From Nitrospirota bacterium (lineage in GTDB: Bacteria > Nitrospirota > JACRHL01), in NCBI GenBank assembly GCA_029881725.1, contig JAOUMB010000010.1, forward strand, positions 1,539 through 65,538: a stretch of DNA of 64,000 nucleotides, given 5' to 3'. This document shows, one piece after another, positions 1 through 51,447 of this stretch. The notes below the pieces were generated by a model. It did no database searches. It was given only the letters and a program-made list of their open reading frames with translations, and had not been told where the DNA came from. The translations under genes were made by a program, and so were the position numbers. Every line of letters starts with the position of its first letter. Position 1 is the stretch's first letter.

Positions 1-1318
1 AACAACGGAAGCCGGGGGAATGCACTTTTTCCGGAAGCCGTTTTTTTGGCCAGTTTATCCTGGTAACGGGCCGGAATTTGCGGATCTTTTGTCACCGTGG
101 TGGTTTCCCGGTCGTAGAGCACGGCAATTTCCTGGGACCCCTGCACGTCCTCCAATTCATACCCCATGGCGAATCCCCGCTGTCCCATGTCAGCAATCAG
201 ACGATCCATCGCATCGGTGGATACTTCGGTTAATCCCATGGCATCCATGGAAAGGCGCGCGCATATGTCCGCCACGTCGCTGACGCGGCGGTTGCTCACG
301 GTGCGGTTGAAGTGCTCGATGTTCCAGAACCCGAGGTCGGCAAAATCGGCGGACCCGGAAAAATCGGGCACTTCGATTTCGTCACGCCCCGGATCAGCCA
401 CGCCATACAGGTCGAAGAAGCCAAGAAACGGCGAGGTGTCCTGCACCGAGCGCAGCACTTCATGGGCAGCCTCCCGCCCCGGTTGCTGTCGCTGCAACCG
501 CGCTAGCAGATGGCGCACAATGGCCGACACCCGAATCCCCTCGTTCGTTACCGTGCCGCCGTCGCTCCATCCGGCATGGTGCAGGGCCACCAGCCCCCAG
601 TCGTTATTGAAGACCGGAGACCCCGAGGAGCCGGGCTCCGTATCGGTGGTGTAGTGAACCACTTTGTCCAACACCTTGATCACCTTGTTCTGATGCAGTG
701 CCACCTCTTTGCGACGGGCCTGCGGGTGCTGAATGATGTTTACCCTTTCCGACCGGGTCACCATGGCCGGGTTCCGCGTCAGGGGCACCGGCTCAATGTC
801 CCCCAAGTCGGTCGGTCGGCAGGCGACAATGGTGAAATCGAGGTTTTCATCGGTGATGTACAACAGGTCCGGTTTCAGCGTCACGCTGGTTGATACCTGA
901 TCTTCCTCATAGCCGAACTCGGCGACACTTCCCCGCGCGGATTCGATGGTCGGCAGCACGTGATTGTTGGTCATGATCAGCTCCGGAGCGATCAGGAATC
1001 CGGTTCCGTAGCCACCGATCACTCCAGCCGTATCCCGGATCACCACCCGGCACACCGCACGCGCCCGACCAGCCCCGTCTTCCAAAAACCGGGCGGGAAG
1101 CAGATTATTTTCCTTGTGGATTTTCTCGTAGTAGTCGGAGATGTGGCCTTCCAGTTCCTTCCGGTATTTCCGGGAATCCACCGGGCCGGCTTCGGGCCTG
1201 CACACGCGCCGGGCACGTACCCCCACCAGCCTGCGATACTCTTCCTCCGTCAAATCCCTTACCCCCGCTACGCGTTTGTCACGGTACACCGTTTTTTTTT
1301 GTTTTTTGTTGGAAGCCA
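1..1318 (-). CDS. Trypsin-like (S1 family) serine peptidase with no signal peptide. Only the N-terminal ~439 aa are in the window; the C-terminus runs off the window start.
   Basis: I translated the minus strand by hand from ATG (complement of 1316-1318): MASNKKQKKTVYRDKRVAG... The sequence contains TGFLIAPELIMTNNHVL (catalytic His region), a DFTIV Asp region, and TDTEPGSSGSPVF (GDSGGP-like Ser motif). It is absent from the ORF track because there is no in-window stop. The N-terminus has no hydrophobic stretch, so it is likely cytoplasmic. Confidence 0.6.
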
Positions 1319-2905: not shown

Positions 2906-3888
2906 TGACGGATTCCCTGTGGATTCCGGCGGGGGGGCTGGTGAGCGGTCTGGCCCTGTTGGCGTGGTCCGCGGAGCGGTTTGTGGAGGGGGCGGCGGCG
3001 GTGGCCCGCAATCTGGATGTGTCGCCCCTGTTGGTGGGGCTGCTGGTGGTGGGCTTTGGCACCTCGGCGCCGGAAATCGTGGTTTCGGCCATCGCCGCGC
3101 TGGACGGCCGCCCGGATATCGCCATCGGCAACGCGGTGGGCTCCAATATCGTCAACGTGGGGCTGGTGTTGGGGGTGGCGGCGCTGATCCGCCCCCTGTT
3201 CGCCCATTCCGGCCTGCTGCGGCGGGAACTTCCCTATACCCTGGGGGCCGCGGTACTGGCCCTGGTGCTGCTTTCCGACGGCGTGCTCAGTCGCACCGAT
3301 GCCATGGTGCTGCTGGTAACTTTTGTGGCCATGGGCCTGTGGATGCTGGGGCAGGACGACCACGACCGGGCCGGCATCGAGGACGCCATGTCCGCCGAGT
3401 TCGCGGCCGAAATGCCCCCGCCCATGAGCACCGAACGGGCGGCAACCTGGCTGGTGGCCGGGCTGCTGCTGATGGTGATCGCATCCCGCGTGCTGGTGTG
3501 GGGGGCGGAAGCGATCGCCCATGCCTTTGGCATCAGCGACCTGATCATCGGACTGACCGTGGTCGCCCTGGGCACCAGCCTGCCCGAATTGGCCACGGCC
3601 ATATCCGCCGCGCGCAAGGGGCACAGCGACATTGTGATCGGCAATGTGCTGGGCTCGAACATGGTCAACATCCTGGCGGTGATCGGCGTGGCGGGGCTGA
3701 TCCACCCGGGGGCGTTCGAGGCGCGGGTGCTGACGCGGGATTTCCCGGCCATGCTGGTGTTCACCGTGGCCCTGTTCCTGATGGCGTTCAGCTTTCGCGG
3801 GCACGGCCGCATCGACCGCCTGGAAGGGGCCCTGCTGATCGCCGCACTGATCGGCTATCTGGGGCTGTTGTACGCGGACGGCGGGTAG
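2906..3888 (+). CDS. Ca2+:cation antiporter (CaCA family, YrbG-like Na+/Ca2+ exchanger).
   Basis: Two alpha-repeat motifs, GFGTSAPEIVVS and GTSLPELATAISAARKGHSDIVIGNVLGSNMVNIL, with multiple TM helices. I placed the start at ATG MTDSLW (2906). The upstream part of the longer ORF overlaps the tandem repeats. Confidence 0.8.
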
Positions 3889-3901
3889 CCCGCTATCCCG
3901 G

Positions 3902-6571
<2,670 letters not shown>

Positions 6572-13828: not shown

Positions 13829-14809
13829 GAGGCGGCGATGAAGGCGGTTGTCTATCACCATTACGGCCCTCCCGAGGTTCTCGGGCTGGAAGAGAAGCCA
13901 CCCCCGGTGCCCGGGGAAAATGAGGTGCTGGTCCACGTGCGGGCCTCGTCCGTCAATGCGGGTGACTGGCACATGATGCGTGGCGAGCCGTTCCTGGTGC
14001 GCCTGATGGGCTACGGGCTCCTGAAACCCAAACACACCACCCTCGGATTCGATCTGGCGGGGCAGGTCGCGGCGGTGGGCGGTGCCGTCACACGGTTTCA
14101 GCCGGGGGATGCGGTGTTCGGCCTTACCCCCGACCGGACCCTTGGCGCATTTGCCGAGTACGCATGCGCGCCGGAACATACCCTGGTGCCGAAACCGGCC
14201 CACGTCTCGTTCGAGGAGGCCGCCGCGGTGCCCGCCGCCGCCATCACCGCCTTGCAGGGACTGCGCGATGCGGGGCGGATGCAGGCCGGGCATCAGGTGT
14301 TGATTAACGGCGCGGGCGGTGGCGTGGGCACCTTCGCGGTGCAGATCGCCAAGGCCCTAGGGGCCAAGGTCACCGCCGTCACCACCACCGGCAAGCTGGC
14401 CATGGCCCGCTCCCTCGGCGCGGACCGGGTGATCGACTACACCGGGCATGATTTCACCCGCCTGGAAAAACGCTACGATCTGATCTTCGATGTGGGCGCC
14501 TACCGCTCCATTTCCGATTACCTGCGCGTGCTGAACCCCGCGGGGCGGTACGTGCTGATTGGCGGCGCCACCGGACGCTTTTTCCAGGCCGCCCTCGCCG
14601 GTCCCCTGCTGTCCATGGTCAGCGGCAAAAAAATCACCACCATGGTCGCGAAACCCAATCAGGACGACCTGATGCTCATCAGGGAACTGCTGGCCGCCGG
14701 AACCATCCGGCCGGTGATCGACCTGCGGTTCCCGCTGAGCGATGTGGCCGGGGCCATCCGCCAGTTGGAAGGCGGCCACGTCAGCGGCAAACTGGTGATT
14801 ACCGTGTAG
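13829..14809 (+). CDS. Zinc-type/MDR-family NAD(P)H-dependent oxidoreductase (quinone oxidoreductase-like).
   Basis: MKAVVYHHYGPPEVL...ENEVLVHVRASSVNAGDWHM..., Rossmann motif LINGAGGGVGTFAVQIAKALGAKV. A GGAGG RBS lies 5 nt upstream of the ATG. Confidence 0.85.
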   Translation, partial: EAAMKAVVYHHYGPPEVLGLEEKPPPVPGENEVLVHVRASSVNAGDWHMMRGEPFLVRLMGYGLLKPKHTTLGFDLAGQVAAVGGAVTRFQPGDAVFGLTPDRTLGAFAEYACAPEHTLVPKPAHVSFEEAAAVPAAAITALQGLRDAGRMQAGHQVLINGAGGGVGTFAVQIAKALGAKVTAVTTTGKLAMARSLGADRVIDYTGHDFTRLEKRYDLIFDVGAYRSISDYLRVLNPAGRYVLIGGATGRFFQAALAGPLLSMVSGKKITTMVAKPNQDDLMLIRELLAAGTIRPVIDLRFPLSDVAGAIRQLEGGHVSGKLVITV

Positions 14810-15240
14810 GGGGACCGTTCGCGACAATCCGAACCTTTTTTCAGGGATTTGCGATATTTCCCGCACGAAATTGTGAAAGCGGTTATAGTAACAACGTCTC
14901 CCGAAACAGGGAGGCGTGTTTCCCTCCCCTCCGGCACTCCACTGACAACGGTCTTCCCCAGGCTGGAAACGCAACGGCGCGGCGCGTCTGACAGCATGCC
15001 GCACTGGAACCCCCGCGACTTCCGCACCCATGGAAACCGCGTGCGCCCGAATGGTCGGGACCGGGTTCCTCCCTATGGGCGCTCCCCGACCGGTGACGGA
15101 TGGGGAAAGAGGATCTCTTTTAAACAACCCGTTTTGATTCAACAGCGCAATGGCCATGGGGCCATGCGCTTTCGCGACCGTACGGCATCCTAATGGTTGG
15201 AGCTGGCGGTCGTTTACCCATCTATATTTGAGAGAAAACG

Positions 15241-15531
15241 ATGAACCTGTTCGTAGGCAACCTGTCTTTTGAAACCTCCGAGCGCGACCTGCGCGAAGCC
15301 TTCGAGGCCTATGGCTCCGTCTCCTCGGCCAGCCTGATCACCGACCGCGAGACCGGCCGTTCGCGCGGTTTCGGCTTTGTGGAGATGGACGACGCGGAAG
15401 CCCGCGCCGCCATCGAGGGCCTGAACAACCAGGACCTGAACGGCCGTGCCCTGAACGTCAACGAGGCTCGCCCGCGCGAGTCCGGCGGCGGCAACCGTGG
15501 CGGTGGCGGCGGCCGTCGCGAGCGCTACTAG
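15241..15531 (+). CDS. RNA-binding protein with an RRM domain and a glycine/arginine-rich tail (RbpA-like).
   Basis: MNLFVGNLSFETSERDLREAFEAYGSV (RNP2), RGFGFVEM (RNP1), C-terminal GGGNRGGGGGRRERY. Followed by a terminator. Confidence 0.9.
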   Translation: MNLFVGNLSFETSERDLREAFEAYGSVSSASLITDRETGRSRGFGFVEMDDAEARAAIEGLNNQDLNGRALNVNEARPRESGGGNRGGGGGRRERY

Positions 15532-16522: not shown

Positions 16523-17650
16523 TCAGTTAAGCCGGTAGTGAAACAGCTTGCACGGGATGGCCCCGTTATAGAGCGTGTGTTTCTTGTCGGCCCCCAGGCG
16601 CATGTGGTGGGCCAGCCCCGGATTGCCGGTGAACACGGCGGCGCGCCAGCCGGAAAAGTGGTCCTTGAGCTGGCCGCCCAGGGCCGCGTACAGGTGATTC
16701 AGCCGGTCGTCGGCGCCCAGCCGCTCCCCGTAGGGAGGGTTGACCGCCACCAGTCCGGGGGGGCCGGGCTCGGGCCGGGTGTCGGCCAGTTCCCGCCGGG
16801 CCACGGTCACATACCCCTCCAACCCGCCGTTTACCACGTTTTCGCGCACCGCCTCCACCGCGCGGGGGTCCCGGTCGTAGCCGTGAATGCGATTGGTGCC
16901 GAGTTTTTTCAGACCCGCCAGCCGCCGGTCACGGGCATCGGTCCACACCCGGTCCCACACGGCCTCGTCGTGTTGCAACCAGCGGGTAAAGCCAAAATTA
17001 TCGCCACGGGCCAATCCGGGGGCAAAGTCGGCGGCCATCATGGCGGCCTCGATCAGCAGGGTGCCGGACCCGCACATCAGGTCCACGAACTGCCCCCCGT
17101 CGGCCGCGATGTCCGGCCAGCGGGCGTGGGCCAGAATGGCCGCCGCCAGGGTCTCCTTGAGGGGCGCCTTGCCCCCCTGCATCCGATAGCCGCGCCGGTG
17201 CAGGGCATCACCTGACAGGTCGACGGACACGGTGGCCTGATCCCGGTACAGATAAACGTTCACGCGCAGGTCCGGGTCCACCGTATCCACCGACGGGCGC
17301 ACCCCGCACGCCTCCCGGAACTGGTCGACGATGGCGTCCTTCACCTTCAGCGCGCCGAAGTGGGAGTGGTCGATGGCGGAACCCGAGGTGGAAAAATCCA
17401 CCACCAGCGTGCCCTCCGGCGCCACGTGCCGTTGCCAGTCGACGCCCTGGATGCCCTTGTAGAGGGCCTGCGGATCGGCAGCATAGAAGGTGCCGATGGG
17501 CAGCAGCACCCGGCTGGCCAGACGCGACCACAGGCAGGCCCGGTACCCGGCCGCCAGATCCCCCTCAAAGGCCACCCCGCCCCGGGTGGGACGCACGTGG
17601 GCCATGCCCATGGTGTTCAGTTCATAGGCCAGCAGCGCCTCGATGTTCAT
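16523..17650 (-). CDS. rlmL: 23S rRNA (guanine2445-N2)-methyltransferase, a standalone RlmL-type protein (THUMP plus class I SAM MTase).
   Basis: From ATG MNIEALLAYELNTMG the protein aligns along its length with the E. coli RlmKL N-terminal half. Matching segments: LWSRLASRVLLP, GALKVKDAIVDQF, PDLRVNVYLY, LSGDALHRRGYR, PLKETLAAAIL, DLMCGSGTLLIEAAMMAADFAPGL, NPPYGERLG. There is no RlmK domain. Confidence 0.8.
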   Translation of the reverse strand: MNIEALLAYELNTMGMAHVRPTRGGVAFEGDLAAGYRACLWSRLASRVLLPIGTFYAADPQALYKGIQGVDWQRHVAPEGTLVVDFSTSGSAIDHSHFGALKVKDAIVDQFREACGVRPSVDTVDPDLRVNVYLYRDQATVSVDLSGDALHRRGYRMQGGKAPLKETLAAAILAHARWPDIAADGGQFVDLMCGSGTLLIEAAMMAADFAPGLARGDNFGFTRWLQHDEAVWDRVWTDARDRRLAGLKKLGTNRIHGYDRDPRAVEAVRENVVNGGLEGYVTVARRELADTRPEPGPPGLVAVNPPYGERLGADDRLNHLYAALGGQLKDHFSGWRAAVFTGNPGLAHHMRLGADKKHTLYNGAIPCKLFHYRLN

Positions 17651-17915
17651 GGCGCACGGGGCGAAAAATTCGAGGGGCTCACTGGCGCTGCCGCCGGGAG
17701 ATTCGGGCGTGGAATGGGGGGCGTGATCGGTCATGAGGGGGGCCATTGTAGCGTCTTTTCAAACCCGCGGCGGACCGGCGCGCGTGAATCCCCGCATACA
17801 CCGCCCGTGTCCTCCAGGGCCTTGACCGAAACCGGCGGATTGGGTTTACTGCATTTCCTTTGCCCGCCCCGTTCCGTCAGGTGGGGGGCTTGAGAATTTT
17901 CAGGAGCAGGGTCCA

Positions 17916-18203
17916 TTGATTATCCAGATCGTCAAATTTGAATCGGCATTGTCGGAAGCGGAAGTGTTGGCCGTTGCCGAAAGCCGCCTGGAACAGTTCC
18001 GCGCACTGCCGGGGCTGCTCCAGAAGTACTACGTGAAAACCGGCCAGCCCAATCATTACGGCGGGATGTATGTGTGGGATTCCATGGAGTCGCTCACCGC
18101 CTTCCGCGAGTCCGATCTGGCTGCCACCATTCCCTCCGCCTATCAGGTGGTGGGGGCGCCGGAGATCGAGATTCTGGAGGGGATGTTTCCGTTGCGGCCG
18201 TAA
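17916..18203 (+). CDS. YdhR-like putative monooxygenase (Dabb/ABM fold, PF08803-like).
   Basis: 95 aa. LPGLLQKYYVKTGQPNHYGGMYVWDSMESLTAF parallels E. coli YdhR [30 protein letters not shown]. The start codon is TTG, preceded by AGGAG. Confidence 0.6.
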   Translation: MIIQIVKFESALSEAEVLAVAESRLEQFRALPGLLQKYYVKTGQPNHYGGMYVWDSMESLTAFRESDLAATIPSAYQVVGAPEIEILEGMFPLRP

Positions 18204-18659
18204 CGGAACCACGCCGCGCGCGGAGCCCCGCCGCCAAGAATGGAAACGGCACCTTAAAAATTAAAAAATCCGTTCGCACCGAGGCACTCGAAGTGCGGGG
18301 GGAGGGATGATTGCCGGAACCGGCGCCCCCTCCCGTAAGGACGGCCATTCGGTAACCCATCCGTAAATTTCCCCGTTATGAACCGTTAACGCACCGGTAA
18401 CTTAGCCCGGTGCTACGCCACGGGAGCTGCGCACAGGGGTGCTACGCGCACGGCGATGGTGGCTGGCGCGGTAATTTGGCCCTGCGCCGGGCAGGGTTTG
18501 CCTCCCCGTTAACCGCAGCAACACTTTGGTTTATAAGAAATAAATCGACTCACCCTCCCCCGGCCCTACTGTGAGGGAGCCAAAATTCCCGCTCCCCCGG
18601 CACCCCCCATCCACGGCAAGGGGCCTGCTCTGGCCGTCCCGATCGCCGTGCGCGCAGCC

Positions 18660-18863
18660 CCTCCACAAGGCCTCATTTTTTCCACATTTTCAACGGGTTC
18701 TGAATTTTCGCCCAAAATTCCCCGGTTCATCCCCTGGAATCGTGCTACCGGCCTTCAGAACCCATTGATATTCCGTTCCGGGGTCACCGTGAACATGCGA
18801 AATCCACGGTGCGAAACGCCTCCACAAAGCCATTTTTTTCCAACATTTTCAATCGGTTCTGAA
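18660..18863. repeat. Pair of roughly 45-bp imperfect direct repeats plus an internal 10-bp inverted copy, inside a low-GC noncoding island.
   Basis: ctccacaaggcctcattttttccacattttcaacgggttctgaa (18660-18704) versus ctccacaaagccatttttttccaacattttcaatcggttctgaa (18820-18863). ttcagaaccc at 18755-18764 is the reverse complement of gggttctgaa. Confidence 0.6.
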
Positions 18864-19403
18864 CGCGAAAACCGTTAATTTTCACCGTGTTTTACTTCGC
18901 AACCACAAACGGGAATTGGTCCAATAAAACAATCAGTTCTGACTTTCCCGCCGACATTTTGCGAAACAAATCCGCCGCGCCCACAACCGGCCAAAAACAC
19001 CACGTTGTCAGCGGGTTATGCCCTGCGGTTTGCCGTGGCCCACGGTTTAGCTTTGCCGTTTGCGAAGCGAAATCGCACGATCCGGCCCGGTCCACACCCC
19101 CGAATTCGCCCCGCGCCGGGCCTCCATGAATCATCCAACTGATTGTTTTTACGTAAGCAATCGCAACCAGGATCACCACGTACGCCAGATACGCCGCTTC
19201 CGCACGTGCGGCCCATTTGCCGCGCAATACACTTCCGCCCCAAATGGCACGCCCCGGATGTTCTGGTCCCCGGCGCACGGCCATCCCGTTACGGCCATCG
19301 TTTCGGCCCTGTTTCAGGAGGTTTCCCGTGGCATACGGAAATACGCGAATCAGCCACTCGCACTCCCCCGCCCGCCCACAGCGACGGGGGTTCGCGCGCC
19401 GCC

Positions 19404-20090
19404 TCAGTATCCGCTGGGGGAAAAGTGCATGAAGTCCTTCTGCCGCCCGGCGATTTCGCCACCCCACCGCAGGCCGGCCCGTTGCATGGCGGCGACCACC
19501 GGACCGTCCGGGAGGATGCTCTCCGGCCACTCCCCCGGCCGCCACTCCCCGCCCCGCATCAGGCGGCAGCCGGGACCGTACTGGATGCAGCGGTCGTACA
19601 GGCCGTTCCACCCGGCGTTGATGTCGATGGCGATGCCGTAGGAATGGTTGCTGAAACCGGTTCTCAAGCCCCCGGCATCCGGCTCGCCACGGGTACGGCC
19701 CGGTCGGTAGCCGGTAACGGTAATCACTGGAAAGCCGCTATCCATAAGTTCGGAAAGCGCCGCCTCCACCTGCCCGGCCAGGTGGAGGCAGGCCTGAAAC
19801 GACGCCACCCCCGGCACCCGCACCCAGGTCTGATCCTCGGCACAGACGGTGCAGCCGGTGGCCGGGTCGATCTCGTCCGGGGCCAGGTCCGCATAGGGGT
19901 GACGGACCTGCCGGTGGTTCACGGCGCGCCGCTCCACGGTGCTCCAGTCCCAGGTGTCGTAGCTGCACCATCCGGGGTTTTCCATCACCCTCGGCATGCC
20001 CACCACGCCGTACCCGGCGGCCAGCAGGGCCAGCAGCGCGCCGATCAGGGCCAGCAGGCGCTTTTTAAAGAACGCGGATCGCCGCCGCAT
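19404..20090 (-). CDS. Peptidase M15 family (VanY/D-Ala-D-Ala carboxypeptidase-like) secreted protein.
   Basis: Signal peptide MRRRSAFFKKRLLALIGALLALLAAG. HSYGIAIDIN plus a later DFMHF resemble the M15 zinc-ligand segments. Its start overlaps the pbpC stop by about 25 bp. Confidence 0.7.
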   Translation of the reverse strand: MRRRSAFFKKRLLALIGALLALLAAGYGVVGMPRVMENPGWCSYDTWDWSTVERRAVNHRQVRHPYADLAPDEIDPATGCTVCAEDQTWVRVPGVASFQACLHLAGQVEAALSELMDSGFPVITVTGYRPGRTRGEPDAGGLRTGFSNHSYGIAIDINAGWNGLYDRCIQYGPGCRLMRGGEWRPGEWPESILPDGPVVAAMQRAGLRWGGEIAGRQKDFMHFSPSGY

Positions 20091-22416
20091 CGGTCTGCCG
20101 CTCCGTCCCCCGGGCGTCCCGGTAGCGGGCGCGGAAGGTATGGCGGCCGCGGCTCAGCGGCCACAGCCAGGTGACCGTGTCCGCCGCCTCCAGAGCCACC
20201 GGCTCGCCGTCGATCAGCCAGTCCACCTGCCCCGCCCCCTCGGGCAGCAGCAGGCGCAGGGGCATGCGCTGGGCGTGCGGGGGAATGTTCGGGTCCACGG
20301 CGTAAATGCTGCGGTCACGTGGCTCAAGGATGGTCGCCTCCCCACCGCGTTCGACCACGGCCACCACCGGCAGCGGCGCTTCCGGGCCGCAGGCGTCGGC
20401 CATGGCGCGGGCCAGCAGCGGCAGGCCGTTGTCCTGCGACCACTGGCGGAAGCGTGGCTCGGGCTCCATGTAGCGCACCGTGCGCGGGCCGTCCCTGCAA
20501 ATCTCGGCGCGCACGTGGCGATGCACGGTGCAGGTGGCGGTGGGAGCGTTTTCCGCCCGGAACCACTCGCGCACCGTGCCATCGCAATCGGGGCCGGGCA
20601 GATGGCCGGACAGGGGGCACACGTCCCGCGCCACCAGCCCGTCGGGCACTTCCGGCCAGGGGGTGCCGCGCCCCTGCATGGCGCGGCGCATCACTTGGTG
20701 AAACAAGGGCCCCGCGCCGGTGATGCCGCTCACCCCGTGCATGGGGCGGCCCGCGTCCTGCCCCACCCACACCCCCACGGTGACCCGCGGGGTGTAGCCC
20801 AGCACCCAGTTGTCGCGGTAGCTGCTGGAGGTGCCGGTCTTGGCCGCCACCGGAAACGGAAAGGAGAGATCGTTATGCCGCCCGAATTCCCCTTCGCGGG
20901 CCAGCGGGTCGCGCAGCACATCGCCGATCAGCCACGCCACCCGCTCCGGCAGCACCCGCTCCCCTTCCGGCGGCGGACCGTCGTGGCGGAAATGCGTGAG
21001 CGGCACCGTCCTGCCCCCCCGCGCCAGCATGGCGTAGGCGCGCACCATCTGATCCAGCGGCACCTCGCCGTTGCCCAGGGTGAGGCCGGGGCCGTAGTCT
21101 TCGGACTCGCGGGTCAGGCTGTCGATGCCGGAGGCGCGCAGCAGGGCCAGCAGGTTGGCCGGATCCAGCTCCAGGGCGGTGACCACGGCGGGCACGTTGA
21201 GGGAGTTGCCCAGCGCCTCGCGGATGCGGCGCGGCCCGGTGAAATCCCCCCCGTAATTGCGCGGGCGGTAGGGTCCGGCGCGGGTGGACACCACCACCGG
21301 CAGGTCCGGCACCAGATCGGCCAGGGTGCCGCCGTGGGTCAGGGCCAGGGCGTAGGTGAACGGCTTGATGGTGGAACCCGGCTGACGCGGCGCGGCGGCG
21401 TAATCCACCATGCCCGCGTTGTCGGTATCGAAAAAGTCGGGAGAGCCCACATAGGCCAGAATCTCGCCGGTGGCGTTGTCCACCACCAGGGCGGCGGCGG
21501 CGTTCACGTCCCGGCTTTCAAGGGAATGCACCGCCTGCGCCACCAGCGCCTGCACGTCGTTTTGCAGGGCCAGATCCAGGCTGGTCCGCACCGGGCCCGA
21601 GGCCCCCTCCGGCATGGCCCTGCGCACCCGCTCGGTAAAATGCGGCGCCAGCAGGCCGGGAGCGGTAAGGGCGGTGGGCACCGGTTCGGAAACCGCGTGC
21701 CGCGCCTCGGCGGCATCGATCAACCCGGCTTCGGCCATACGCGCCAGCAGCCGGTCCCGGTGGCGGGCCAGTTCGTCGGATTCGGCCAGCAGCCGGTTGG
21801 GGGCCCTCACCAGCACCGCCAGTGTGGCCGCCTGAGCCGCGGAAAGCAGGCTGCAATCGGTTCCAAAGTAGGCACGGCAGGCCTCCCCTGCCCCGGTCAC
21901 CGTGCCGCCGTAAGGGACGTGATTCAGGTACCAGGCCAGAATCTCGTCCTTGGACACCGCCCCGTCCAGCCGGGCGGCGGCGGCGATCTGCAAAAATTTG
22001 CCCGGCAGGGTGCGCGGAATGTCCCCCGCCATGCGCGCCACCTGCATGGACACGGTGGACGCACCGGAACGGCTGTCCCCCGCCCCCCGCCGCCACGCAG
22101 CCCGCGCCAGTGCCGGGTAATCCACCCCGCCGTGGGTGTAAAAACGGCGGTCCTCGGAAAGCAGCACCGCCCCGGCCAGCAGTGGCGGAATGGCGGGCAG
22201 CGCCACCCCCCGCCGCCCGTCCGTCGCCGGAATATCGCGCAGCAGTGAGCCGTTGCGGTCGAACAGGCGCAGGGAACGGGAGTCTTCAGCGGGCAGCGCG
22301 TGCGGGAGGGTGAGCCACATGACGGCGAGCACGGCACAGAGGGACGCACCCACCCAAAGCAGCCGGGCCGGGACGTTCCACGGATACCCGTACCTATGTC
22401 GTTTCAACGGGAACAA
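20065..22416 (-). CDS. pbpC: Penicillin-binding protein 1C (class A PBP: GT51 transglycosylase, transpeptidase, PbpC C-terminal domain).
   Basis: 783 aa. LLSEDRRFYTHGGVDYPALARAAW...GASTVSMQVARM (GT51 motifs), TGTSSSYRDNWVLGY (KTG region), C-terminal domain present. Co-linear with E. coli PbpC. The start is approximate (TTG at 22416; an in-frame ATG lies 32 codons downstream). Confidence 0.85.
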   Translation of the reverse strand: MFPLKRHRYGYPWNVPARLLWVGASLCAVLAVMWLTLPHALPAEDSRSLRLFDRNGSLLRDIPATDGRRGVALPAIPPLLAGAVLLSEDRRFYTHGGVDYPALARAAWRRGAGDSRSGASTVSMQVARMAGDIPRTLPGKFLQIAAAARLDGAVSKDEILAWYLNHVPYGGTVTGAGEACRAYFGTDCSLLSAAQAATLAVLVRAPNRLLAESDELARHRDRLLARMAEAGLIDAAEARHAVSEPVPTALTAPGLLAPHFTERVRRAMPEGASGPVRTSLDLALQNDVQALVAQAVHSLESRDVNAAAALVVDNATGEILAYVGSPDFFDTDNAGMVDYAAAPRQPGSTIKPFTYALALTHGGTLADLVPDLPVVVSTRAGPYRPRNYGGDFTGPRRIREALGNSLNVPAVVTALELDPANLLALLRASGIDSLTRESEDYGPGLTLGNGEVPLDQMVRAYAMLARGGRTVPLTHFRHDGPPPEGERVLPERVAWLIGDVLRDPLAREGEFGRHNDLSFPFPVAAKTGTSSSYRDNWVLGYTPRVTVGVWVGQDAGRPMHGVSGITGAGPLFHQVMRRAMQGRGTPWPEVPDGLVARDVCPLSGHLPGPDCDGTVREWFRAENAPTATCTVHRHVRAEICRDGPRTVRYMEPEPRFRQWSQDNGLPLLARAMADACGPEAPLPVVAVVERGGEATILEPRDRSIYAVDPNIPPHAQRMPLRLLLPEGAGQVDWLIDGEPVALEAADTVTWLWPLSRGRHTFRARYRDARGTERQTDAAAIRVL

Positions 22417-22524: not shown

Positions 22525-25500
22525 TTACGGCTCCGCAACCACGAACCGCGCCGGAACCCCAGCCCCGTACGTCTCCGGGGCATACATTTCCTCCACGATC
22601 GGCGCGTTGGCCGAGAACGTTCCGGTGGCGATGGCCTGCGCCACATAGGCCATTTCGTAGGTGCCGGGGCTGATGAAGTCGGCGAACCAGCGCACCGCCT
22701 CCAGCCCCATCTCCCGGTGGTAGAACCCGCCGGAACGGTAGGCGCCGTACCACAGGTCGTCCTCGTTCCAGGAATAGCCGCCGGAACTGTTGTCGCCCTC
22801 GCCCAGTTGGGCCAGCGCTTTACTGGCGGAGGCCAGGGCGGTGTTGATCGGCTCCAGCCCGGCGGCCAGCGGGTCGCTCAGGGCCACGAACAGGCGCTCG
22901 GCGGGGATGCCCACCTTCAGGCTCACGCGCACGATCTCGCCCCGTTTGATCTCGCCGCCGTCCGCCAGGGGCTGCCAGGCGCCGTTCCGGTGCACGGCAT
23001 ATTCCCGCGCCACGGTCATTCCCGCGTTCACCGGGTCCCCCGGCACGTCCTGATAGGCGAAGCGGATGCGCGCCGTGTAATAGGCGCGCCCGGTGCCCTT
23101 GCGGGTCAGTTTAAGTTCCGTCTGGCGGCCCGGATCGTCCGCCGCGAACGGATAGGAGAAGGTGCGCGGGTTGGCGTCGAAGCCCTTGAAGGTTTCGCTG
23201 CCGATGTCGTGCCCGCCCAGGGAGCCGGACACGGTGAAGTCCGGCGTGTCCTTTTCGTAGATCCGGGCATAGTCCACCAGCGCGTTGGTGCAGTAGAGGT
23301 TCTCCTGGGTGTTGTTCCAGCGCCCGGCCTTGCGGCTTTCGGTGATGAAACGGGTGAGCGGCGTGGTCTGCTGTTCCGATCCGGCAACCTGGGTGAACGC
23401 GGTGAGCAACAGGCAATTGGTGCGGGTGGTGGTGTGCAGGATGCGCCCCCAGCCGTCGTCGTTGGTCTCCTGGAACTGCACCTTGCCGGAGGTGATCTCC
23501 ATGTGCGAGCGGATCTCCCCGGCCAGCGACTCGGCCATGCCGCCGGTGTTCTGGGCCAGGTTCAGCCCCATCCACAAAAAGCCCTTTCCAAACAGGCTGA
23601 GCAGTTCCCGGTCGCCATACAGGTTGCTCATGGCGGAGCCGGTGTTGCGGCCGTTGCGCAGCAATGTGTAGCCGATCATGGCGCGCACGCTGGCCCTGGA
23701 GCGCTTGCTGTAATACCAGGGCCAGGCGGAGTCGTTGCGCAGCAGGTTGTCCAGATAGCCGTGCAGCCGGGTTTTCACATCGGCGGGCACCGGATAGCGG
23801 GCCTCCTCCAGCCACAGCATGCCCAGCCCGGTATAGGCGGACAGGTACGGATCGGCCAGTTCGTCGCGCGGGCTCCAGTAGGCAAAGCCGCCGCTCGGGG
23901 TCTGGAAGCGCGCCGCATCGCTCATGGTCTGGGCAATGAGGCCGCTGGCGGCCTGCTTCGCCACCTTCACCTCGGGGTCCAGGTAGCCATCCAGCGCCAC
24001 CGCGTTTCGGTACATGAGCGCCTTGGTCAGGCGCTGTTCCCAGCACAGGTACGGATACTCGAATACGTAGCGGAACACGTCGTTCAGGTGCGAAAGCACG
24101 GAGCTGGACACCAGCAGTTCGATGCCGCCCACGTCGGTGCGGATGCCGGGTGGAATCTGCACCCCTTCGGTGACCCCGTCGGTGGTGGTGGAGCCATAGG
24201 TGGCGAATACCGCCGGGGTGGCGAACGGCACCACCTTGAACGGCAGGCGCATGCCGTCGAACAGTTCACCGGAGCGGGCACGAATTTCCACCTTGCCCGC
24301 CCCGGCGTGGGACGGGGCGGTCAGCGGGAACTGCACGATGCCCTTGCCCCCGGCGGGCACGGTCACCGGCTGCTCGCCCGGCCCGGCCAGCTTGAGCGGA
24401 CCGGGGGTGAGCGAGACGTCCACGTCCAGCGGCCCCTCCACCCGGTTGTGCACCACAAAACGGGCGTCGAAGGCATCCCCCTCGGTGGCGAAATTGGGCA
24501 GCGCCGATTCCAGCATCAGCTTCTGGTTGACCTTGAAACTGCCGTCGGTGCCGGTGCCAAAGCGGTGCTTAGTATCCACCGCCACCGCGATGATGCGCCA
24601 GGTGGTCAGGTTATCGGGCGCGGTAAAGGTGAACTGGGCCTTGCCGTCCGCCCCGGTGCGCAGGGCCGGTTCCCAGTAGGCCACGGCCTTGAACAACTCG
24701 CGCAGACGCTCCTCGCCCGCGCCGCCACCGCCGCCGGGATCGGCCCCCTTCTTGCCGTAATGGCGGCGGCCGATCAGGTGGATCAGGGTTTCACTGGTGG
24801 TCACGTCCAGCGGCGGAAGCTCGTAAAAATAGTCGTGCACCTCGTACTTGGCCGCATAGTCCCCGGCCAGTTGCAGCACCGCCTCGTCCACCACCGCCAC
24901 CATCACCTCGGCATCCACGGCCCTGCCCCCGGGACCGGCAACGGACACGTACCCGGTCACCGTGGCCCCCGGCTCCACCTCGGCGCTGGCGGTGCCGGAA
25001 GTGACCGCCAGACGGGTGGACGGATCGCTTACCGGCACACGGATCATGCCCATCTTGAAGGACGGCTTGCCCAGATCGACGCCATCCTCGATTTTTTCGG
25101 AGGTGCGCCCGGACAGCAGCACCACGGACAGGTAAAAACCGGGCACCAGGGCGTCCCGGTCGATGGGGAATTCCAGCACCTGGGCGCCGCCGGTAAGGGT
25201 GCGTTCCTCCCGGTGCAGAATGCCGTGCCGCTCCAGCGAAATCAGCGCCCGCGCCTCCTCATAGGGCGATTTGACCAGCACCCGCAGGGTGTCGCCCTTC
25301 ACATACTCCTTCTTCTCCGGAATCAGGTCGATGCGGTCGTTGTCCTGACGCCACCAGCCGATGTATTCCGGTCCGGTCACATAGCGGCCGATGGTGGTGG
25401 TCACCGGCCGGCCCCTGCCGTCGCGGGCCTCCGCCTGCACCATGTAATACCCGGCGGAATTGGGCGCAAGCGGGCAGCTTTGCGCCTGCCTGGCGGTGGT

Positions 25501-28410
25501 GACGGTGCAGCGCGCCATCTCCTTGTCGGTGGTGGTGGTGTCGTAATGGAAGTAGTTGCCCGCCCCCCGGCGGCGCACGGTGTTGTATTCGCGCTTTTTC
25601 AGAATCAGGTCCACGGACACGCCGGGCACAGGTTTGTCTTCCGGGCTCACCGCCACCACCTGCACCTCCATATCCTGCTTGGGCTCGAACACCCACTCTT
25701 TGGTGTGCAGACCCAGATAGAAGTTGGTGGGGTGCACCGTGGTGCGGGTGCGGGCGGCGATCTCCCGCCCGGAATCATCCGGGAAGCGCGCCTCCATGGT
25801 GACCGTGCCGTGGCCGTTGACGCGCCCCGTGGGCAGGGTCACCAGACTGCGGAACACGCCGTCCGCGTCGGTGGCCAGCGACTCGTTGACCACCGTATAC
25901 GGGCTGCCCTGGTAATAGCCGGTGTCGCTGGCAAAGGTGTATTTCTCCAGCGCGGGGGCCTTGGGCCGGAACGGCTGCCCCTGCCAGCTCACGTTCAGCG
26001 TGCCCCGCACCCCCTGCACCGGACCGCCAAAGTGATAGGCCGCGTTGCCGTTGACCGGAATGGCGTCGGTCACCTGGAACGACTCGCCCGGTTTTTCCAC
26101 CGTCACCTTGAAGGTGGGCAGCCGGTATTCCTCCACCCGGAACGCCTCGCTCTCGACCAGGGCGTGGCCGTGAATGTTCTTCACGTATACCGTGTAGCCG
26201 CCCATGGCCGCATTGGCGGGCAGGGTGAATTCCAGATCGCCGGTGCTGAATTCGTTGAGCTTCATCTCCGTGTCCGCCAGCACCGGGTCGCCCCGGAAGT
26301 TGGCCACCTGCACGGTCAGGATGCGTTCCGCCGGGTCCAGCAGCTTGAGCGATTCATGGTCCCACTGGCGGGCGTAGATTTTCAGCCGCACCGTATCGCC
26401 CGCCTTGTACAGGGGGCGGTCGCTCACCACGTTCATGCGGAAGTTGTTTTTGGCCGTCAGTCTGGACGACGGCACGCCGAAGTCCCAGCTGCGGATTCCG
26501 CCGGTCCAGCGGTGGGAGTCCACGAAGGAGAAATCGTCCGCGGTCTCGGCCACCAGAAACAGGGTGTCATCGCCGTAGCTGCCCACATTGCGGGCCGGAT
26601 CGAGCTCCCGCAATCCCGGAAGGGACACAAAACCGTTGGCATCGGTACCGGCATAGGCGCGCGTGTTGCCGTTCTCGTCCACCACGCGCACCACCACGCC
26701 CTGCTTCGGGGTGGCGTCCTTCAGGGAATGCACCCAGGCGCCACTGTTGAAATAGCCCATCTTGCCGGTGATGCCGAAGTCGGTGATCTGCACCTGGAAG
26801 GTCTTGGGGCAAATGGGGTTGCCACGGTGATCCACGTCCACCCGCTTGCCGTCCAGGTCGTATACCTCGTCCGCGCGCCCGATCAGAAAGCCGTTGGGGA
26901 GGTCCGGCTTCAGCAGCCGGAAGTCCAGCGGGTTGACCGCCGGGATGTCCCATCCGGCCTCGGTCTGGACATCGTGGGCCTCGAACAGGCCACGCGGATC
27001 GGCCTTTTCCAGGTCGCAGCGGCTGCTCCAGTTGCGGTCCAGGCCGATGTAATCCAGGTTTTTGGAGTCGCGGCTGCCCATCAGGTTGAGGCGGAAGTTT
27101 TTCACGTTCACCGCCGTATACCCCACCTGATGCGGGCCCTTGGCCTCAATCACCGCCGTGCTGTGCTCCAGGTCGAGGGACGGATCGAAGTGGGTGGTCT
27201 CGAAGGAAAACGCCTTCGCCCCCTGAAGCGGGCGGCCAAAGCGGTCGGTAATGGCCGGGTCCAGGGCGATCTGATAGGTGGCTTCCCCGCCAAACGGGCG
27301 GCTGAGGGAGTAGCCGTGGGCCACGTTATCCGGGTTGTCCTTCAGGTATTCCGGCGAGTTGTACCCGCCCGGCAGCCAGCCCGCGTGGGGGGTGACGGTG
27401 ATGCGGTCGGCCAGTTGACCGTTGGTGGTGGGCACCGAAAAGCGGAGGTGCACGCTGTCGCCCGGATCGCATTTTTTCAGGTCCAGCGACTCGGTTCGGG
27501 TGCCGCCGGTGGTCTTGTTGCGCCAGCCGCAGGCGAATTCCCGCACGAAAAAATCGGGGAACGTGCGGAAGTTGATCTCGATGTCCCGCTGCGCCGGAAG
27601 CGGGCCGGACACGGCCACCATCTTGCCCCGGTCCAGTATCAGCTTGCAGCCATCATCCGCACCCAGATCCTTTTGCGGCGTGAAATAAAAGCTGCGGGAG
27701 GCGTCAAATCGCCCCCGCTCCTCATCCTCGCCCAACGGCCGCACCGTGGCCGAAACGCCACTGCCGAACAGGTTGCACTTGAAGGCCGCCGCCGCTTCCA
27801 GCGAGTCCTGTTTAACCGGCTGGTTAAACGATACGGTAACCGTGGGCAGCACCGGGCTGTCGGTAAATTCCACCTGTTGCCCGGCCGCCCGCAGGGTGGC
27901 GGTGGCGAACCGGGTGACGTGATCCTTTTCCAGAACGGTACCGTCCAGAGCCTTCATCCCGGCGGCGATTTTGACCTCGTAGGCGGTGGAAAGGGGCAAT
28001 TCGCCGTCCAGCCAGCAGGCCAGGCTGGTGGTGTTCAGCCACCGCCAGCTGCAATCGGGCTGCGGGGTGATGGACACCGGCAGGCCCTGGGCGGAGGCCT
28101 CCATGTCGCCCAGTTCCACCATGCGTTTGTTGAACACGATGACCACTTGGGACACGGCGGTCTGCTCGATCGCCGACGGCTTGACCAGCGACACCACCAG
28201 ATTCGCCGACGAGGTGAGGGCGACGTCCAGGCTCGCGCTGTCCGCGGCGGTGGTTTGGGGGATGGAGGCAGGGCCGCCCGGGCTGCCCTCCGGCGTGCCG
28301 AGGGGGCCTCCGCCGCTGCAGGCGGCCAACACCCCGGCCAGCATCAGGGCAAAAAACCAGGAAAAATGCGGGCCGTTGACACGCGCACCGGTGATATCAG
28401 CAAACCCCAT
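22525..28410 (-). CDS. Bacterial alpha-2-macroglobulin family lipoprotein (YfhM/ECAM-like, thioester-containing).
   Basis: About 1960 aa from ATG MGFADITGARVNGPHFSWFFALMLAGVLAAC (lipobox LAAC), with a GGAGAGGG RBS. A candidate thioester motif is YPYLCWEQ (CxEQ). It sits immediately upstream of pbpC, as in the known yfhM-pbpC gene pair. Confidence 0.9.
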   Translation of the reverse strand: MGFADITGARVNGPHFSWFFALMLAGVLAACSGGGPLGTPEGSPGGPASIPQTTAADSASLDVALTSSANLVVSLVKPSAIEQTAVSQVVIVFNKRMVELGDMEASAQGLPVSITPQPDCSWRWLNTTSLACWLDGELPLSTAYEVKIAAGMKALDGTVLEKDHVTRFATATLRAAGQQVEFTDSPVLPTVTVSFNQPVKQDSLEAAAAFKCNLFGSGVSATVRPLGEDEERGRFDASRSFYFTPQKDLGADDGCKLILDRGKMVAVSGPLPAQRDIEINFRTFPDFFVREFACGWRNKTTGGTRTESLDLKKCDPGDSVHLRFSVPTTNGQLADRITVTPHAGWLPGGYNSPEYLKDNPDNVAHGYSLSRPFGGEATYQIALDPAITDRFGRPLQGAKAFSFETTHFDPSLDLEHSTAVIEAKGPHQVGYTAVNVKNFRLNLMGSRDSKNLDYIGLDRNWSSRCDLEKADPRGLFEAHDVQTEAGWDIPAVNPLDFRLLKPDLPNGFLIGRADEVYDLDGKRVDVDHRGNPICPKTFQVQITDFGITGKMGYFNSGAWVHSLKDATPKQGVVVRVVDENGNTRAYAGTDANGFVSLPGLRELDPARNVGSYGDDTLFLVAETADDFSFVDSHRWTGGIRSWDFGVPSSRLTAKNNFRMNVVSDRPLYKAGDTVRLKIYARQWDHESLKLLDPAERILTVQVANFRGDPVLADTEMKLNEFSTGDLEFTLPANAAMGGYTVYVKNIHGHALVESEAFRVEEYRLPTFKVTVEKPGESFQVTDAIPVNGNAAYHFGGPVQGVRGTLNVSWQGQPFRPKAPALEKYTFASDTGYYQGSPYTVVNESLATDADGVFRSLVTLPTGRVNGHGTVTMEARFPDDSGREIAARTRTTVHPTNFYLGLHTKEWVFEPKQDMEVQVVAVSPEDKPVPGVSVDLILKKREYNTVRRRGAGNYFHYDTTTTDKEMARCTVTTARQAQSCPLAPNSAGYYMVQAEARDGRGRPVTTTIGRYVTGPEYIGWWRQDNDRIDLIPEKKEYVKGDTLRVLVKSPYEEARALISLERHGILHREERTLTGGAQVLEFPIDRDALVPGFYLSVVLLSGRTSEKIEDGVDLGKPSFKMGMIRVPVSDPSTRLAVTSGTASAEVEPGATVTGYVSVAGPGGRAVDAEVMVAVVDEAVLQLAGDYAAKYEVHDYFYELPPLDVTTSETLIHLIGRRHYGKKGADPGGGGGAGEERLRELFKAVAYWEPALRTGADGKAQFTFTAPDNLTTWRIIAVAVDTKHRFGTGTDGSFKVNQKLMLESALPNFATEGDAFDARFVVHNRVEGPLDVDVSLTPGPLKLAGPGEQPVTVPAGGKGIVQFPLTAPSHAGAGKVEIRARSGELFDGMRLPFKVVPFATPAVFATYGSTTTDGVTEGVQIPPGIRTDVGGIELLVSSSVLSHLNDVFRYVFEYPYLCWEQRLTKALMYRNAVALDGYLDPEVKVAKQAASGLIAQTMSDAARFQTPSGGFAYWSPRDELADPYLSAYTGLGMLWLEEARYPVPADVKTRLHGYLDNLLRNDSAWPWYYSKRSRASVRAMIGYTLLRNGRNTGSAMSNLYGDRELLSLFGKGFLWMGLNLAQNTGGMAESLAGEIRSHMEITSGKVQFQETNDDGWGRILHTTTRTNCLLLTAFTQVAGSEQQTTPLTRFITESRKAGRWNNTQENLYCTNALVDYARIYEKDTPDFTVSGSLGGHDIGSETFKGFDANPRTFSYPFAADDPGRQTELKLTRKGTGRAYYTARIRFAYQDVPGDPVNAGMTVAREYAVHRNGAWQPLADGGEIKRGEIVRVSLKVGIPAERLFVALSDPLAAGLEPINTALASASKALAQLGEGDNSSGGYSWNEDDLWYGAYRSGGFYHREMGLEAVRWFADFISPGTYEMAYVAQAIATGTFSANAPIVEEMYAPETYGAGVPARFVVAEP

Positions 28411-28531
28411 CGTTCCCTCTCCCAGGCAGGGGATAATCGAACCCCGGCGGGCCATCCATGGCCATGCCGGTCGGTCCACTGTTCCAGAAGATTTACATTT
28501 TGGCAACCCGGCGGGCGGGCGCAGAGGCTGT

Positions 28532-28843
28532 CTAAGCGGCGGAAAGATGGATGGAAGTGGCGGCGCAGTAGTCACATTGCATCACCAGATGCCGCTGGTG
28601 GGATTCCGTCTCGCAGTGCATGACGCCGCTCAACTGGCCACTGCCACACACCCGGCACGGTTGCTCCTGTCCGCTGTGGTCGTGGGCGCGGGAAACGGTC
28701 ACTTCCGCCTGACAGGCGGTACAGGCCGCCCGGTAGCTATCCCCCCCACTCATGCAGGTGGAATGCAGTTCCAACTCCCCGGCGCCGCAGCAGGGGCAAC
28801 TGGTGGCCGCCAGCATGATGCGGGCACTGGCCTGATGATTCAT
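28532..28843 (-). CDS. Small Cys-rich protein (putative zinc-ribbon).
   Basis: About 103 aa from ATG MNHQASARIML with a GGAGGA RBS. Cys pairs CPCCG...C..C, CRVCG, CDYC. Sits between the beta-barrel gene and the A2M gene. Confidence 0.45.
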   Translation of the reverse strand: MNHQASARIMLAATSCPCCGAGELELHSTCMSGGDSYRAACTACQAEVTVSRAHDHSGQEQPCRVCGSGQLSGVMHCETESHQRHLVMQCDYCAATSIHLSAA

Positions 28844-50266: not shown

Positions 50267-50317
50267 CTTAATACTCCCACTGTTCACAGAACGACACATC
50301 CTTGTTGTTCATTTAAA

Positions 50318-50926: not shown

Positions 50927-51447
50927 TGATCTAAAACACACGGTTATTTAACTCCTGCCTTCTGTCGCCAGACCGGTATTTTCCGGCCGATTCGACCTGT
51001 GCTGGATCCGGGTTACTCAAACACCTTAACAACCCGTCCCCATCCGGAGACTTGATCCCATCCATGGGCACTCCACAAACACAGTTCCATTCGTGTCTGC
51101 ACAATATCAGTGCACCAGACGATTGCAGGTTCTTTGCCAATCGTCCCGCTTTTCGTAAACATGATTATCTTACAGTCACTTATGATCGACTCGCACTGAG
51201 CACTCGTCAATTCACAACCAAACACTTTCTATTGCTGGGAAAAAGTTTAGGACTTTCCGACAAAATATTGACGAAACTCTTTCCCTTTGGAAATGAGTAC
51301 ATTTACATAGCACTTTTGAGGGGGGTGGGGGTTCCGCAAGGGGATAGCGGAACACGGAGGCGGTTATCCGGAAACCGGAAGTTCAAGAGGGAGGAATTGA
51401 GGCCAGATTTTCGGCACCGCGCGGGAGGCGCGCGGGGGGAAGGATAA

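Follow-up and report, generated by a model that had tools for sequence, protein, structure and literature searches.

A gene-free island in a Nitrospirota-labelled genome very likely holds one copy of a dispersed non-coding repeat

What accounts for a 1.2-kb interval that lacks genes, lies between two genes converging on it, and is filled with direct and inverted repeats? The question is raised by positions 18204-19403 of a 64,000-nucleotide stretch of DNA (hereafter the window: assembly GCA_029881725.1, contig JAOUMB010000010.1, positions 1,539 to 65,538) from a metagenome-assembled genome (MAG) labelled Nitrospirota bacterium. An earlier note, made from the letters alone, had described this island as gene-free and AT-richer than its surroundings, a description borne out by the ends of the flanking open reading frames (ORFs), by Pfam-negative frames, and by a drop in GC content. 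It had offered three ideas for the repeats: a regulatory platform for the neighbouring genes, an unannotated structured non-coding RNA (ncRNA), or a decayed mobile-element or prophage end. The last of these comes closest, since what the island holds is one copy of a repeat dispersed over several loci, although that copy is a complete conserved unit and no decayed end.

We conclude with high confidence that the island holds one complete copy (~18347-19212) of a dispersed non-coding repeat family. The element is lineage-specific, ~0.87 kb long, and previously undescribed; a literature search for a described equivalent gave nothing specific. The repeats noticed earlier are the internal architecture of this element and no operators for the neighbouring genes.

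Copies of the element at unrelated loci

The evidence for a family begins with the 20-mer CATTTTCAAYSGGTTCTGAA, which occurs at 18685-18704 and 18844-18863 and, inverted and with 3 mismatches, at 18754-18773. These 3 matches compare with 0.01 expected by chance, and there are none elsewhere in the 64 kb. Scanning JGI metagenome contigs for this 20-mer returned 17 loci, 11 of which share the 20-mer only, a chance match, whereas 6 have flanking similarity. The six loci (five from Ga0224496 and one from Ga0224506) share 430-750 nt with the island and then diverge completely. Two more copies, L088 and L091, were recovered by a protein search with a spurious ORF called on the C-rich strand; L088 is identical to L089 and L090 and was found in the ENA sample that also yielded the contigs of the window itself. 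Thus, the gggttctgaa-type motif and ~750 nt around it recur elsewhere, the kind of recurrence that the earlier note had named as separating this region from plain spacer.

By BLAST/nhmmer, L077 matches window positions 18347-19099 at 89.6% and L088 matches 18383-19102 at 77%. Matches to ~18658-19100 at ~81-82% are found in L071, L072, L078, L080, L086, and L091, and L080 additionally carries the block at 18345-18407. L072 and L080 are one locus in two samples (96.7% identical), and there are eight distinct loci in all, the window included, with pairwise identities of 68-88%. A family profile run on the 64-kb window finds a single copy.

Tetranucleotide usage of the copy-bearing loci of at least 4 kb correlates with that of the window at r=0.80-0.94 (L080 is lowest, and L091 is too short for a score). 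These values are comparable to those of the window's own fragments, whereas unrelated high-GC loci give 0.2-0.6. Therefore, the copies belong to the same or closely related genomes.

The genes that flank the copies are a varied set: an AT3/SGNH acyltransferase, a thioredoxin-like protein, TfoX, a cadherin-like protein, DUF480 and TPR proteins, and an orphan Rhs/YD C-terminal fragment. In each of the four copies whose neighbours are visible on both sides, the flanking genes converge on the element. On the right, the neighbour is convergent in at least six of the seven copies for which it could be scored; the exception is L071, where the element lies upstream of a co-directional gene.

Population-level data bear on the island as well. 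It is covered by three ENA contigs that are nearly identical and belong to the same population, and two of these end inside, at window positions 18663 and 18795. Assemblies break inside or beside the element, as would be expected of a repeat, and its presence explains why independent assemblies do so at this island. Four same-population contigs are 99.8-99.98% identical over 4-11 kb, with the differences concentrated in the island: outside the M15 peptidase gene on its right, six of the seven distinct differing sites fall within 18675-18781 (~110 nt). In one contig, L002, five changes cluster in 18703-18717 and yield a variant resembling the paralogue L088, which suggests gene conversion between copies.

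Architecture of the element

The features of the element are listed below in window coordinates.

18347-19212, plus strand (by convention only: the C-rich, CCACAA-bearing strand): the dispersed element, ~866 nt, delimited by BLAST/nhmmer matches
18351-18407, plus strand: left block of five ~11-nt phased units, GGTAACCCATCC / GTAAATTTCCCC / GTTATGAACC / GTTAACGCACC / GGTAACTTAGCC, from the alignment of full-length copies
18439-18457, plus strand: REP-like 19-mer GTGCTACGCGCACGGCGAT, with a partial direct copy at 18410-18420
18458-18641, no strand: variable middle, which differs by subfamily and is bounded by the inverted 19-mer pair
18642-18660, minus strand: REP-like 19-mer, inverted, with 2 mismatches; the inverted pair is 20 nt, 90% complementary
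18652-18704, plus strand: U1, the first direct repeat of the earlier note (CCACAA, T-run, CCACA, TTTTCAACGGGTTCTGAA), conserved in all copies
18705-18753, no strand: loop between U1 and inv1, 50-51 nt in all eight copies despite sequence turnover; its 3' part ATCGTGCTACCGGCC is invariant, and near-identical strains differ most in this loop
18754-18768, minus strand: inv1, inverted module TTCAGAACCCATTGA, with one variable position among eight copies
18774-18818, no strand: near-invariant hairpin CGTTCCG-(GGGT)-CACCGTG-loop-CACGGTG-CGAAACG, from the alignment and a reading of the sequence
18811-18863, plus strand: U2, the second direct repeat of the earlier note
18903-18942, plus strand: U3, CCACAA ... 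CAATCAGTTCTGA
18981-19020, plus strand: U4, CCACAA ... TCAGCGGGTTATG
19032-19046, plus strand: short conserved hairpin GCCGTGGCCCACGGT followed by a T-rich tail, weakly terminator-like; the same site is flagged in L088 and L080
19137-19149, minus strand: inv2, inverted module AACTGATTGTTTT, a perfect 13-nt complement of 18926-18938 in U3
19174-19211, plus strand: three or four ~9-nt tandem units, CACGTACGC CAGATACGC CGCTTCCGC ..., a weakly conserved right edge

The core (~18650-19085) is built from four direct modules of ~80 nt, U1 to U4, each composed of CCACAA, an A/T run, CCACA, and CAAnnGGTTCTGA. The distances from one CCACAA to the next are 159-160, 81, and 78-79 nt in every copy, and inv1 together with the hairpin at 18774-18818 occupies the double-length gap between U1 and U2. 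To the right of the core, the extension up to ~19212 shows weaker similarity. In the left block, the 25-nt sequence CCGTTAACGCACCGGTAACTTAGCC (18383-18407) is invariant in five copies and includes the near-palindrome GTTAACG-CAC-CGGTAAC. The variable middle has an AT-rich palindromic spot at 18528-18546. Tandem Repeats Finder reported nothing inside the element.

Most of the repeats described earlier find their place in this scheme, often in longer form. The direct repeats of about 45 bp extend to 53 nt (18652-18704 and 18811-18863, 79% identical, 159 nt apart), and the inverted 10-mer between them lengthens to a 15-nt arm (18754-18768) that is 93% complementary to 18690-18704. Both direct repeats had been given the ending caa(c/t)gggttctgaa; the shared repeat holds, although the second unit in fact reads caatCGgttctgaa. 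The two occurrences of ggtgctacgc are real and form part of the 19-mer GTGCTMCGCGCACGGCGAT at 18439-18457 (plus strand), whose inverted partner lies at 18642-18660. This 19-mer has 2 matches in the island against 0.14 expected and none outside the island within the window; at other loci it is found four times in the flank of L088 (3898, 5814, 6632, and 6682) and once in L071 (352). The ccgt(a/t)aac repeats correspond to the five phased units at 18351-18407.

Conservation at the level of nucleotides

The gene-free interval coincides with window positions 18204-19403 and is flanked by two convergent 3' ends. Its GC content at 18500-19100 is 0.48-0.58, compared to 0.67-0.72 in the flanks, and the plus strand is strongly C-rich, with a GC skew down to -0.28. 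The 800-nt skew of the island, -0.23, is the most negative in the window (mean -0.01, sd 0.06). All copies share this character, with a GC content of 0.49-0.57 and a GC skew of -0.11 to -0.36. Moreover, CCACAA occurs 4-7 times on one strand of the element and never on the other in every copy, and GCGAAR is likewise concentrated on the plus strand.

Several searches for coding potential were negative. A Pfam scan of the island in all six frames gave zero matches at E<=1, and no small ORF with a common start exists across copies in any frame. The commonly open frame is interrupted by a stop in three copies, and the other five frames, joined for a protein search, returned nothing. Variable columns are spread over the codon phases as 54/50/49. 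A pseudogene or decayed gene was rejected for lack of a Pfam match, of a protein match, and of codon periodicity. The window also yielded no tRNA or tmRNA.

The records of the flanking proteins at NCBI are MDH5526499.1 and MDH5526501.1, and the gap in numbering indicates that the NCBI pipeline may have annotated one coding sequence within the island. None of ten island ORFs looked up in the protein collection was present.

Variation among the copies is unevenly distributed. Although about 40% of core columns vary, 3 runs of at least 15 nt are invariant, where 0.05 would be expected. Within one block of ~80 nt (18738-18818), variation is limited to a 4-nt patch plus two single sites, and the longest unbroken runs are 15-18 nt. 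From these patterns, we infer that the element has been kept under purifying selection acting on nucleotides. Near-invariant blocks of up to ~80 nt held at fixed spacing are the signature of a sequence read by a machine, not of drifting junk.

How the element may have spread and been maintained

The best explanation we can offer, although we rate it somewhat below an even chance, is an old, non-autonomous element that spread by duplication, is maintained by selection on its nucleotides, and is probably recognised on one strand. The element would have been copied into intergenic DNA beyond the ends of genes by machinery encoded elsewhere, itself being non-autonomous. After this spread, purifying selection would have acted on the nucleotide sequence, with the repeated modules and hairpins serving as recognition features. 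What is recognised would not be symmetric duplex sites but one strand, either in a transcript or in single-stranded DNA formed as an intermediate. One-strand recognition is favoured because the element is strand-asymmetric, because inverted and direct modules match in copy-specific fashion, and because certain substitutions stay paired only on the minus strand. Taken by itself, the step of spreading as a non-autonomous element is one that we propose provisionally.

A number of observations weigh against this explanation. There are no terminal inverted repeats common to the five aligned full-length copies, whose left end (ATTCGGTAACCC...) and right end show no conserved inverted match; as for the outer inverted repeat at 18213/19381, its arms are in the flanks, which are locus-specific. 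The earlier note had proposed checking for flanking target-site duplications, and no direct repeat was seen where the copies in the window, L077, L088, and L080 meet their flanks; the boundaries there are good to ~5-10 nt, and no empty site was compared. There are no near-identical copies, the closest distinct loci being 88% identical, and thus nothing indicates that the element has moved recently. Conservation is strongest in central and not in terminal blocks, the opposite of what is seen in a classical cut-and-paste MITE (miniature inverted-repeat transposable element). No transposase, integrase, reverse transcriptase, rep, par, or recombinase gene lies beside any copy. Finally, the family is known through one 20-mer and ORF calls, and its eight copies are a lower bound.

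A possible structured RNA from the G-rich strand

Another possibility, which we consider on the unlikely side, is that the copies form a family of structured ncRNA genes of ~0.6-0.8 kb, transcribed from the minus (G-rich) strand. The inverted and direct modules would pair as long stems, and the invariant blocks would be structural or ligand- or protein-contacting cores. A G-rich sense strand with strong skew is typical of structured RNAs, and folding of one strand is suggested by several comparisons among the aligned sequences. The consensus fold of the minus strand reaches -86 to -90 kcal/mol compared to -64 kcal/mol for the plus strand. In the hairpin at 18774-18818, the sole variable patch (18781-18784) coincides with a predicted bulge. 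A T/C change at 18803 and several one-sided changes (G.U to A-U or G-C and the reverse) stay paired only on the minus strand. Relative to shuffles, pairing is 93.8% against 92.5%, there are 8 double-change pairs against 4.8 (reached by 4 of 500 shuffles), and the covariation score is 0.133 against 0.112 (reached by none of 500). However, these excesses are small, and measures of this kind are inflated when eight related sequences and a structure come from the same alignment. In an unbiased scan for helices, no helix has more than 2 covarying pairs.

Two further features of the copies are consistent with long-range pairing. The sequence of inv2 follows that of its partner, which is U3 in four copies but U1 in three, through variants specific to each copy (window, ATCAG; L086, ATCGG; L077, CAACGGG). 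In addition, the loop between U1 and inv1 stays at a constant 50-51 nt while its sequence turns over, although this loop folds no better than shuffles (z -1.2 to +1.1).

Signs of transcription do not favour an RNA gene on this strand. No sigma-70-like promoter is conserved across copies on either strand, and the only conserved terminator-like site sits on the plus strand. The Rfam scan proposed in the earlier note was run and no family matched: cmscan gave zero matches at E<=1 over window positions 17000-21000, and there was no match inside any of the eight copies (E<=10 for the seven other loci). Covariation support for the ncRNA idea is weak. It would also be unusual to find eight paralogous large ncRNA genes unless they were tied to a mobile element.

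If the element is an RNA, it would be one more of the few large bacterial ncRNAs whose function is unknown. If it acts at the DNA level, it would point to an unrecognised system for mobilisation or chromosome organisation in a poorly known lineage. A broader proposal covers both cases, namely that the functional nucleic acid which the copies represent in this uncultured Nitrospirota-labelled lineage, large and multi-copy, is of a new class, either a ~0.7-kb G-strand RNA whose direct and inverted modules would pair as stems or a strand-specifically mobilised single-stranded DNA whose hairpins would be read by an unknown enzyme. We regard this proposal as speculative and, on present evidence, rather improbable.

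Other explanations

It is quite unlikely, although worth weighing, that the element is instead a protein-binding platform in duplex DNA. Such a platform would offer arrays of sites, in its ~15-bp modules and its 11-bp phased block, to a bending protein like integration host factor (IHF), bound at WATCAANNNNTTR-like cores after A/T tracts, or to a ParR/centromere-like or architectural protein, and a compact nucleoprotein structure would form at several chromosomal sites. The six or seven copies of the ~15-bp motif in both orientations, with spacing constant to 1 bp, would suit this arrangement, as would the left block with its five units at ~11 bp (one helical turn) and its invariant near-palindrome, and the AT-rich palindromic spot in the middle. 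Moreover, inv1 reads TATCAATGGGTTC, which agrees at 8 of 9 specified positions with what we take to be the IHF consensus, and the T6-7 tract of U1 and U2 lies 8 nt upstream of the core, presumably as in lambda H'. However, duplex binding leaves the GC skew and the one-strand motif bias unexplained, and invariant blocks of up to ~80 nt (unbroken for 15-18 nt) far exceed binding sites. No rep, par, or recombinase gene is nearby, and enrichment of DnaA boxes is marginal, with no perfect boxes.

Very unlikely is the view that the island is neutral junk, left in decay by old insertions or by a gene acquired horizontally, without function and with repeats that have survived by chance. Its low GC content, its lack of any ORF, promoter, or database match, its position in a gap between convergent genes where insertions are tolerated, and the strain-level mutation hot spot at 18675-18781 could all be read in this way. 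However, copies that are 12-32% apart keep identical blocks and spacing (the 3 invariant runs of at least 15 nt against 0.05), paralogue and strain variation is confined to the same few segments, and no codon-phase trace of a former gene exists.

A local cis-regulatory region of iterated operators, or a long 3' untranslated region, for ydhR or for the minus-strand operon of alpha-2-macroglobulin (A2M), PBP1C, and M15 genes is scarcely credible: that operon would indeed read into the island, and a minus-strand hairpin with a U-run lies at ~18255-18300, but the neighbours converge on the island and have no promoter of theirs here, the same element stands beside unrelated genes at seven other loci, and in relatives that carry this operon, M15 is followed by other genes and no DNA is similar. 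We take it that the element does not regulate ydhR or the M15 gene, and the regulatory platform of the earlier note is not supported.

Flanks, neighbours, and related loci

The element is embedded in the following surroundings.

17916-18203, plus strand: YdhR/ABM-like ORF, 95 aa, the left neighbour, pointing into the island
18204-18346, no strand: left flank, locus-specific; similarity to the full-length copies L077 and L080 begins at ~18345-18347
18213-18234 and 19381-19402, no strand: outer inverted repeat, 22 nt, 82% complementary, whose arms abut both stop codons
19213-19403, no strand: right flank, locus-specific, bearing one arm of the outer inverted repeat
19404-20090, minus strand: Peptidase_M15_4 ORF, 228 aa, the right neighbour, pointing into the island

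The left flank carries GC-rich hairpins, GGGGGGAGGG...CCCCCTCCC (~18296-18333), and an A/T run at 18255-18270, and is probably the terminator zone of the ydhR-like gene. A 19-nt hairpin motif is doubled, at 19320-19338 in the right flank and at 19027-19045 (84% identical). The score of the outer inverted repeat was reached by 1 of 1000 dinucleotide shuffles. Compared by eye with the REP-like 19-mer, its left arm looks like a degenerate inverted copy (15/19), and its right arm matches weakly (11/19).

On the minus strand, the right-hand neighbour is the last gene of a conserved cluster that comprises alpha-2-macroglobulin (22525-28575), PBP1C (20065-22416), and M15 (19404-20090), and the start of M15 overlaps the end of PBP1C by 26 nt. 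The pairing of A2M with PBP1C is well known, and the addition of M15 to this pair recurs in many distant relatives. The nearest relatives of the M15 protein are at most 62% identical, among 185,579 species genomes and a set of 5.8 billion proteins. At the loci of distant M15 relatives, other genes directly follow M15, and there is no DNA in common with the island. Because these relatives are too distant and share no DNA, a true orthologous comparison is impossible. In two Thiohalomonadaceae MAGs (L005, 6588-7400, and L006, 6582-6609), the DNA after M15 is low in GC (0.37-0.45 compared to 0.59); it holds an ORF and has no sequence in common with the island.

Searches with blastn of phage and plasmid collections gave no match, and a conserved 22-mer of the element is absent from IMG/VR. 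One viral match to the 20-mer, L068, was set aside as chance because its flanks are dissimilar and its context is low in GC. Further lower-GC stretches of the window (0.57-0.61) lie at 50001-52000, 14600-15350, and 1-2000, and none of them contains a copy according to the family profile.

Two copy-bearing loci have additional features. In L080, a low-GC segment (0.33-0.50) at 3455-4364 on the minus strand of the locus adjoins the element copy. It encodes a 191-aa orphan Rhs/YD-shell C-terminal fragment (TEN_YD-shell, 46.5 bits against a Pfam cut-off of 50) followed by a familyless 90-aa ORF, and looks like an orphan toxin tip with an immunity module. In L071, positions 280-600 hold a tandem ~95-nt duplication adjoining a tRNA gene (597-682, minus strand). 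This region also has the 19-mer and a TTGTTCTTTGAAATC motif, the latter being present in the flanks of the L088 and L080 copies as well, and its GGTAACCCATTCGG resembles the left end of the element. Either a solo fragment or a small repeat related to the element may be present here.

Comparison with known systems

Some familiar classes could be set aside on specific grounds. A clustered regularly interspaced short palindromic repeat (CRISPR) array does not fit, given repeats that are 79% identical, spacings of 159, 83, and 76 nt, and inter-repeat segments that are conserved between copies. An iteron origin or plasmid centromere would share the presence of repeats, but the neighbours here are ordinary and there is no plasmid similarity. 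A replication origin or DnaA-box cluster was rejected on finding 2-5 boxes with at most 2 mismatches per copy, none of them perfect, and no skew switch in the window. Matches to consensus sequences for extracytoplasmic function (ECF) sigma factors, sigma-54, parS, dif, and Mu ends, judged by eye only, are poor.

Among multi-copy RNAs, HNH endonuclease-associated RNA and ORF (HEARO)/IscB omega-RNA and ORF-less class C group II introns are, like the element, several hundred nucleotides long and multi-copy, have a G-rich sense strand, and would share its position just downstream of the terminator-like hairpins of an upstream gene. In contrast, the element has no Rfam match, no GUGYG 5' end, no domain V, and weak covariation, and a group II intron was rejected for want of an Rfam core at E<=1 (window 17000-21000) or E<=10 (the seven other loci). 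The long direct repeats (LDR) and hok-sok repeats of E. coli (~0.5 kb) belong to the same size class, are multi-copy and intergenic, and have long-range complementarity. However, the element lacks a conserved small hydrophobic ORF with a conserved start, and with no conserved small ORF, a type I toxin-antitoxin repeat was rejected.

MITEs and other non-autonomous elements, including the palindrome-associated transposable elements (PATEs) of the IS200/IS605 group, are also multi-copy, non-coding, and intergenic, and they likewise have subfamilies and hairpins. The strand-specific features of the element would fit single-strand mobilisation of the HUH/Y1 type, as in PATEs. The element differs in having no terminal inverted repeats, no near-identical copies, no target duplication seen at the junctions, and no cognate transposase identified; its conservation is central; and at ~866 nt it is longer than a typical MITE (<~600 bp). 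A classical DDE-mobilised MITE was rejected on its lack of shared terminal inverted repeats, its 68-88% identity between copies, and its length.

Close likenesses are seen with bacterial interspersed mosaic elements (BIMEs) of E. coli, including the IHF-binding RIP/RIB type, and with the corresponding mosaic elements of Neisseria (NIMEs) and Rhizobium (RIMEs). These are also non-coding, dispersed mosaics of short motifs in both orientations, sited beyond stop codons and often between convergent genes, with GC-rich palindromic units of the repetitive extragenic palindrome (REP) type and, presumably, an IHF-like core. As in REP/BIME arrays, the 19-mer occurs in alternating orientation (18439, plus; 18642, minus), with what look by eye like degenerate copies abutting both stop codons. 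REP sequences are present in tens to hundreds of copies, many per 64 kb, whereas the 19-mer is found in the window only inside the island and the family profile finds one copy. The element is a single conserved unit of ~870 nt as opposed to tens to ~300 nt, it is low-copy (one per 64 kb and ~8 seen), its module order is fixed across copies where that of the mosaic elements is combinatorial, its invariant blocks are long, and its strand bias is strong.

Dispersed intergenic repeats are common, and most of them are short, numerous, and nearly identical; this element is the reverse. Annotators should not read the repeats at this site as local operators. What distinguishes the element from described repeat classes is that it is long, old, and present in few copies, with near-invariant blocks and a spacing fixed to the nucleotide.

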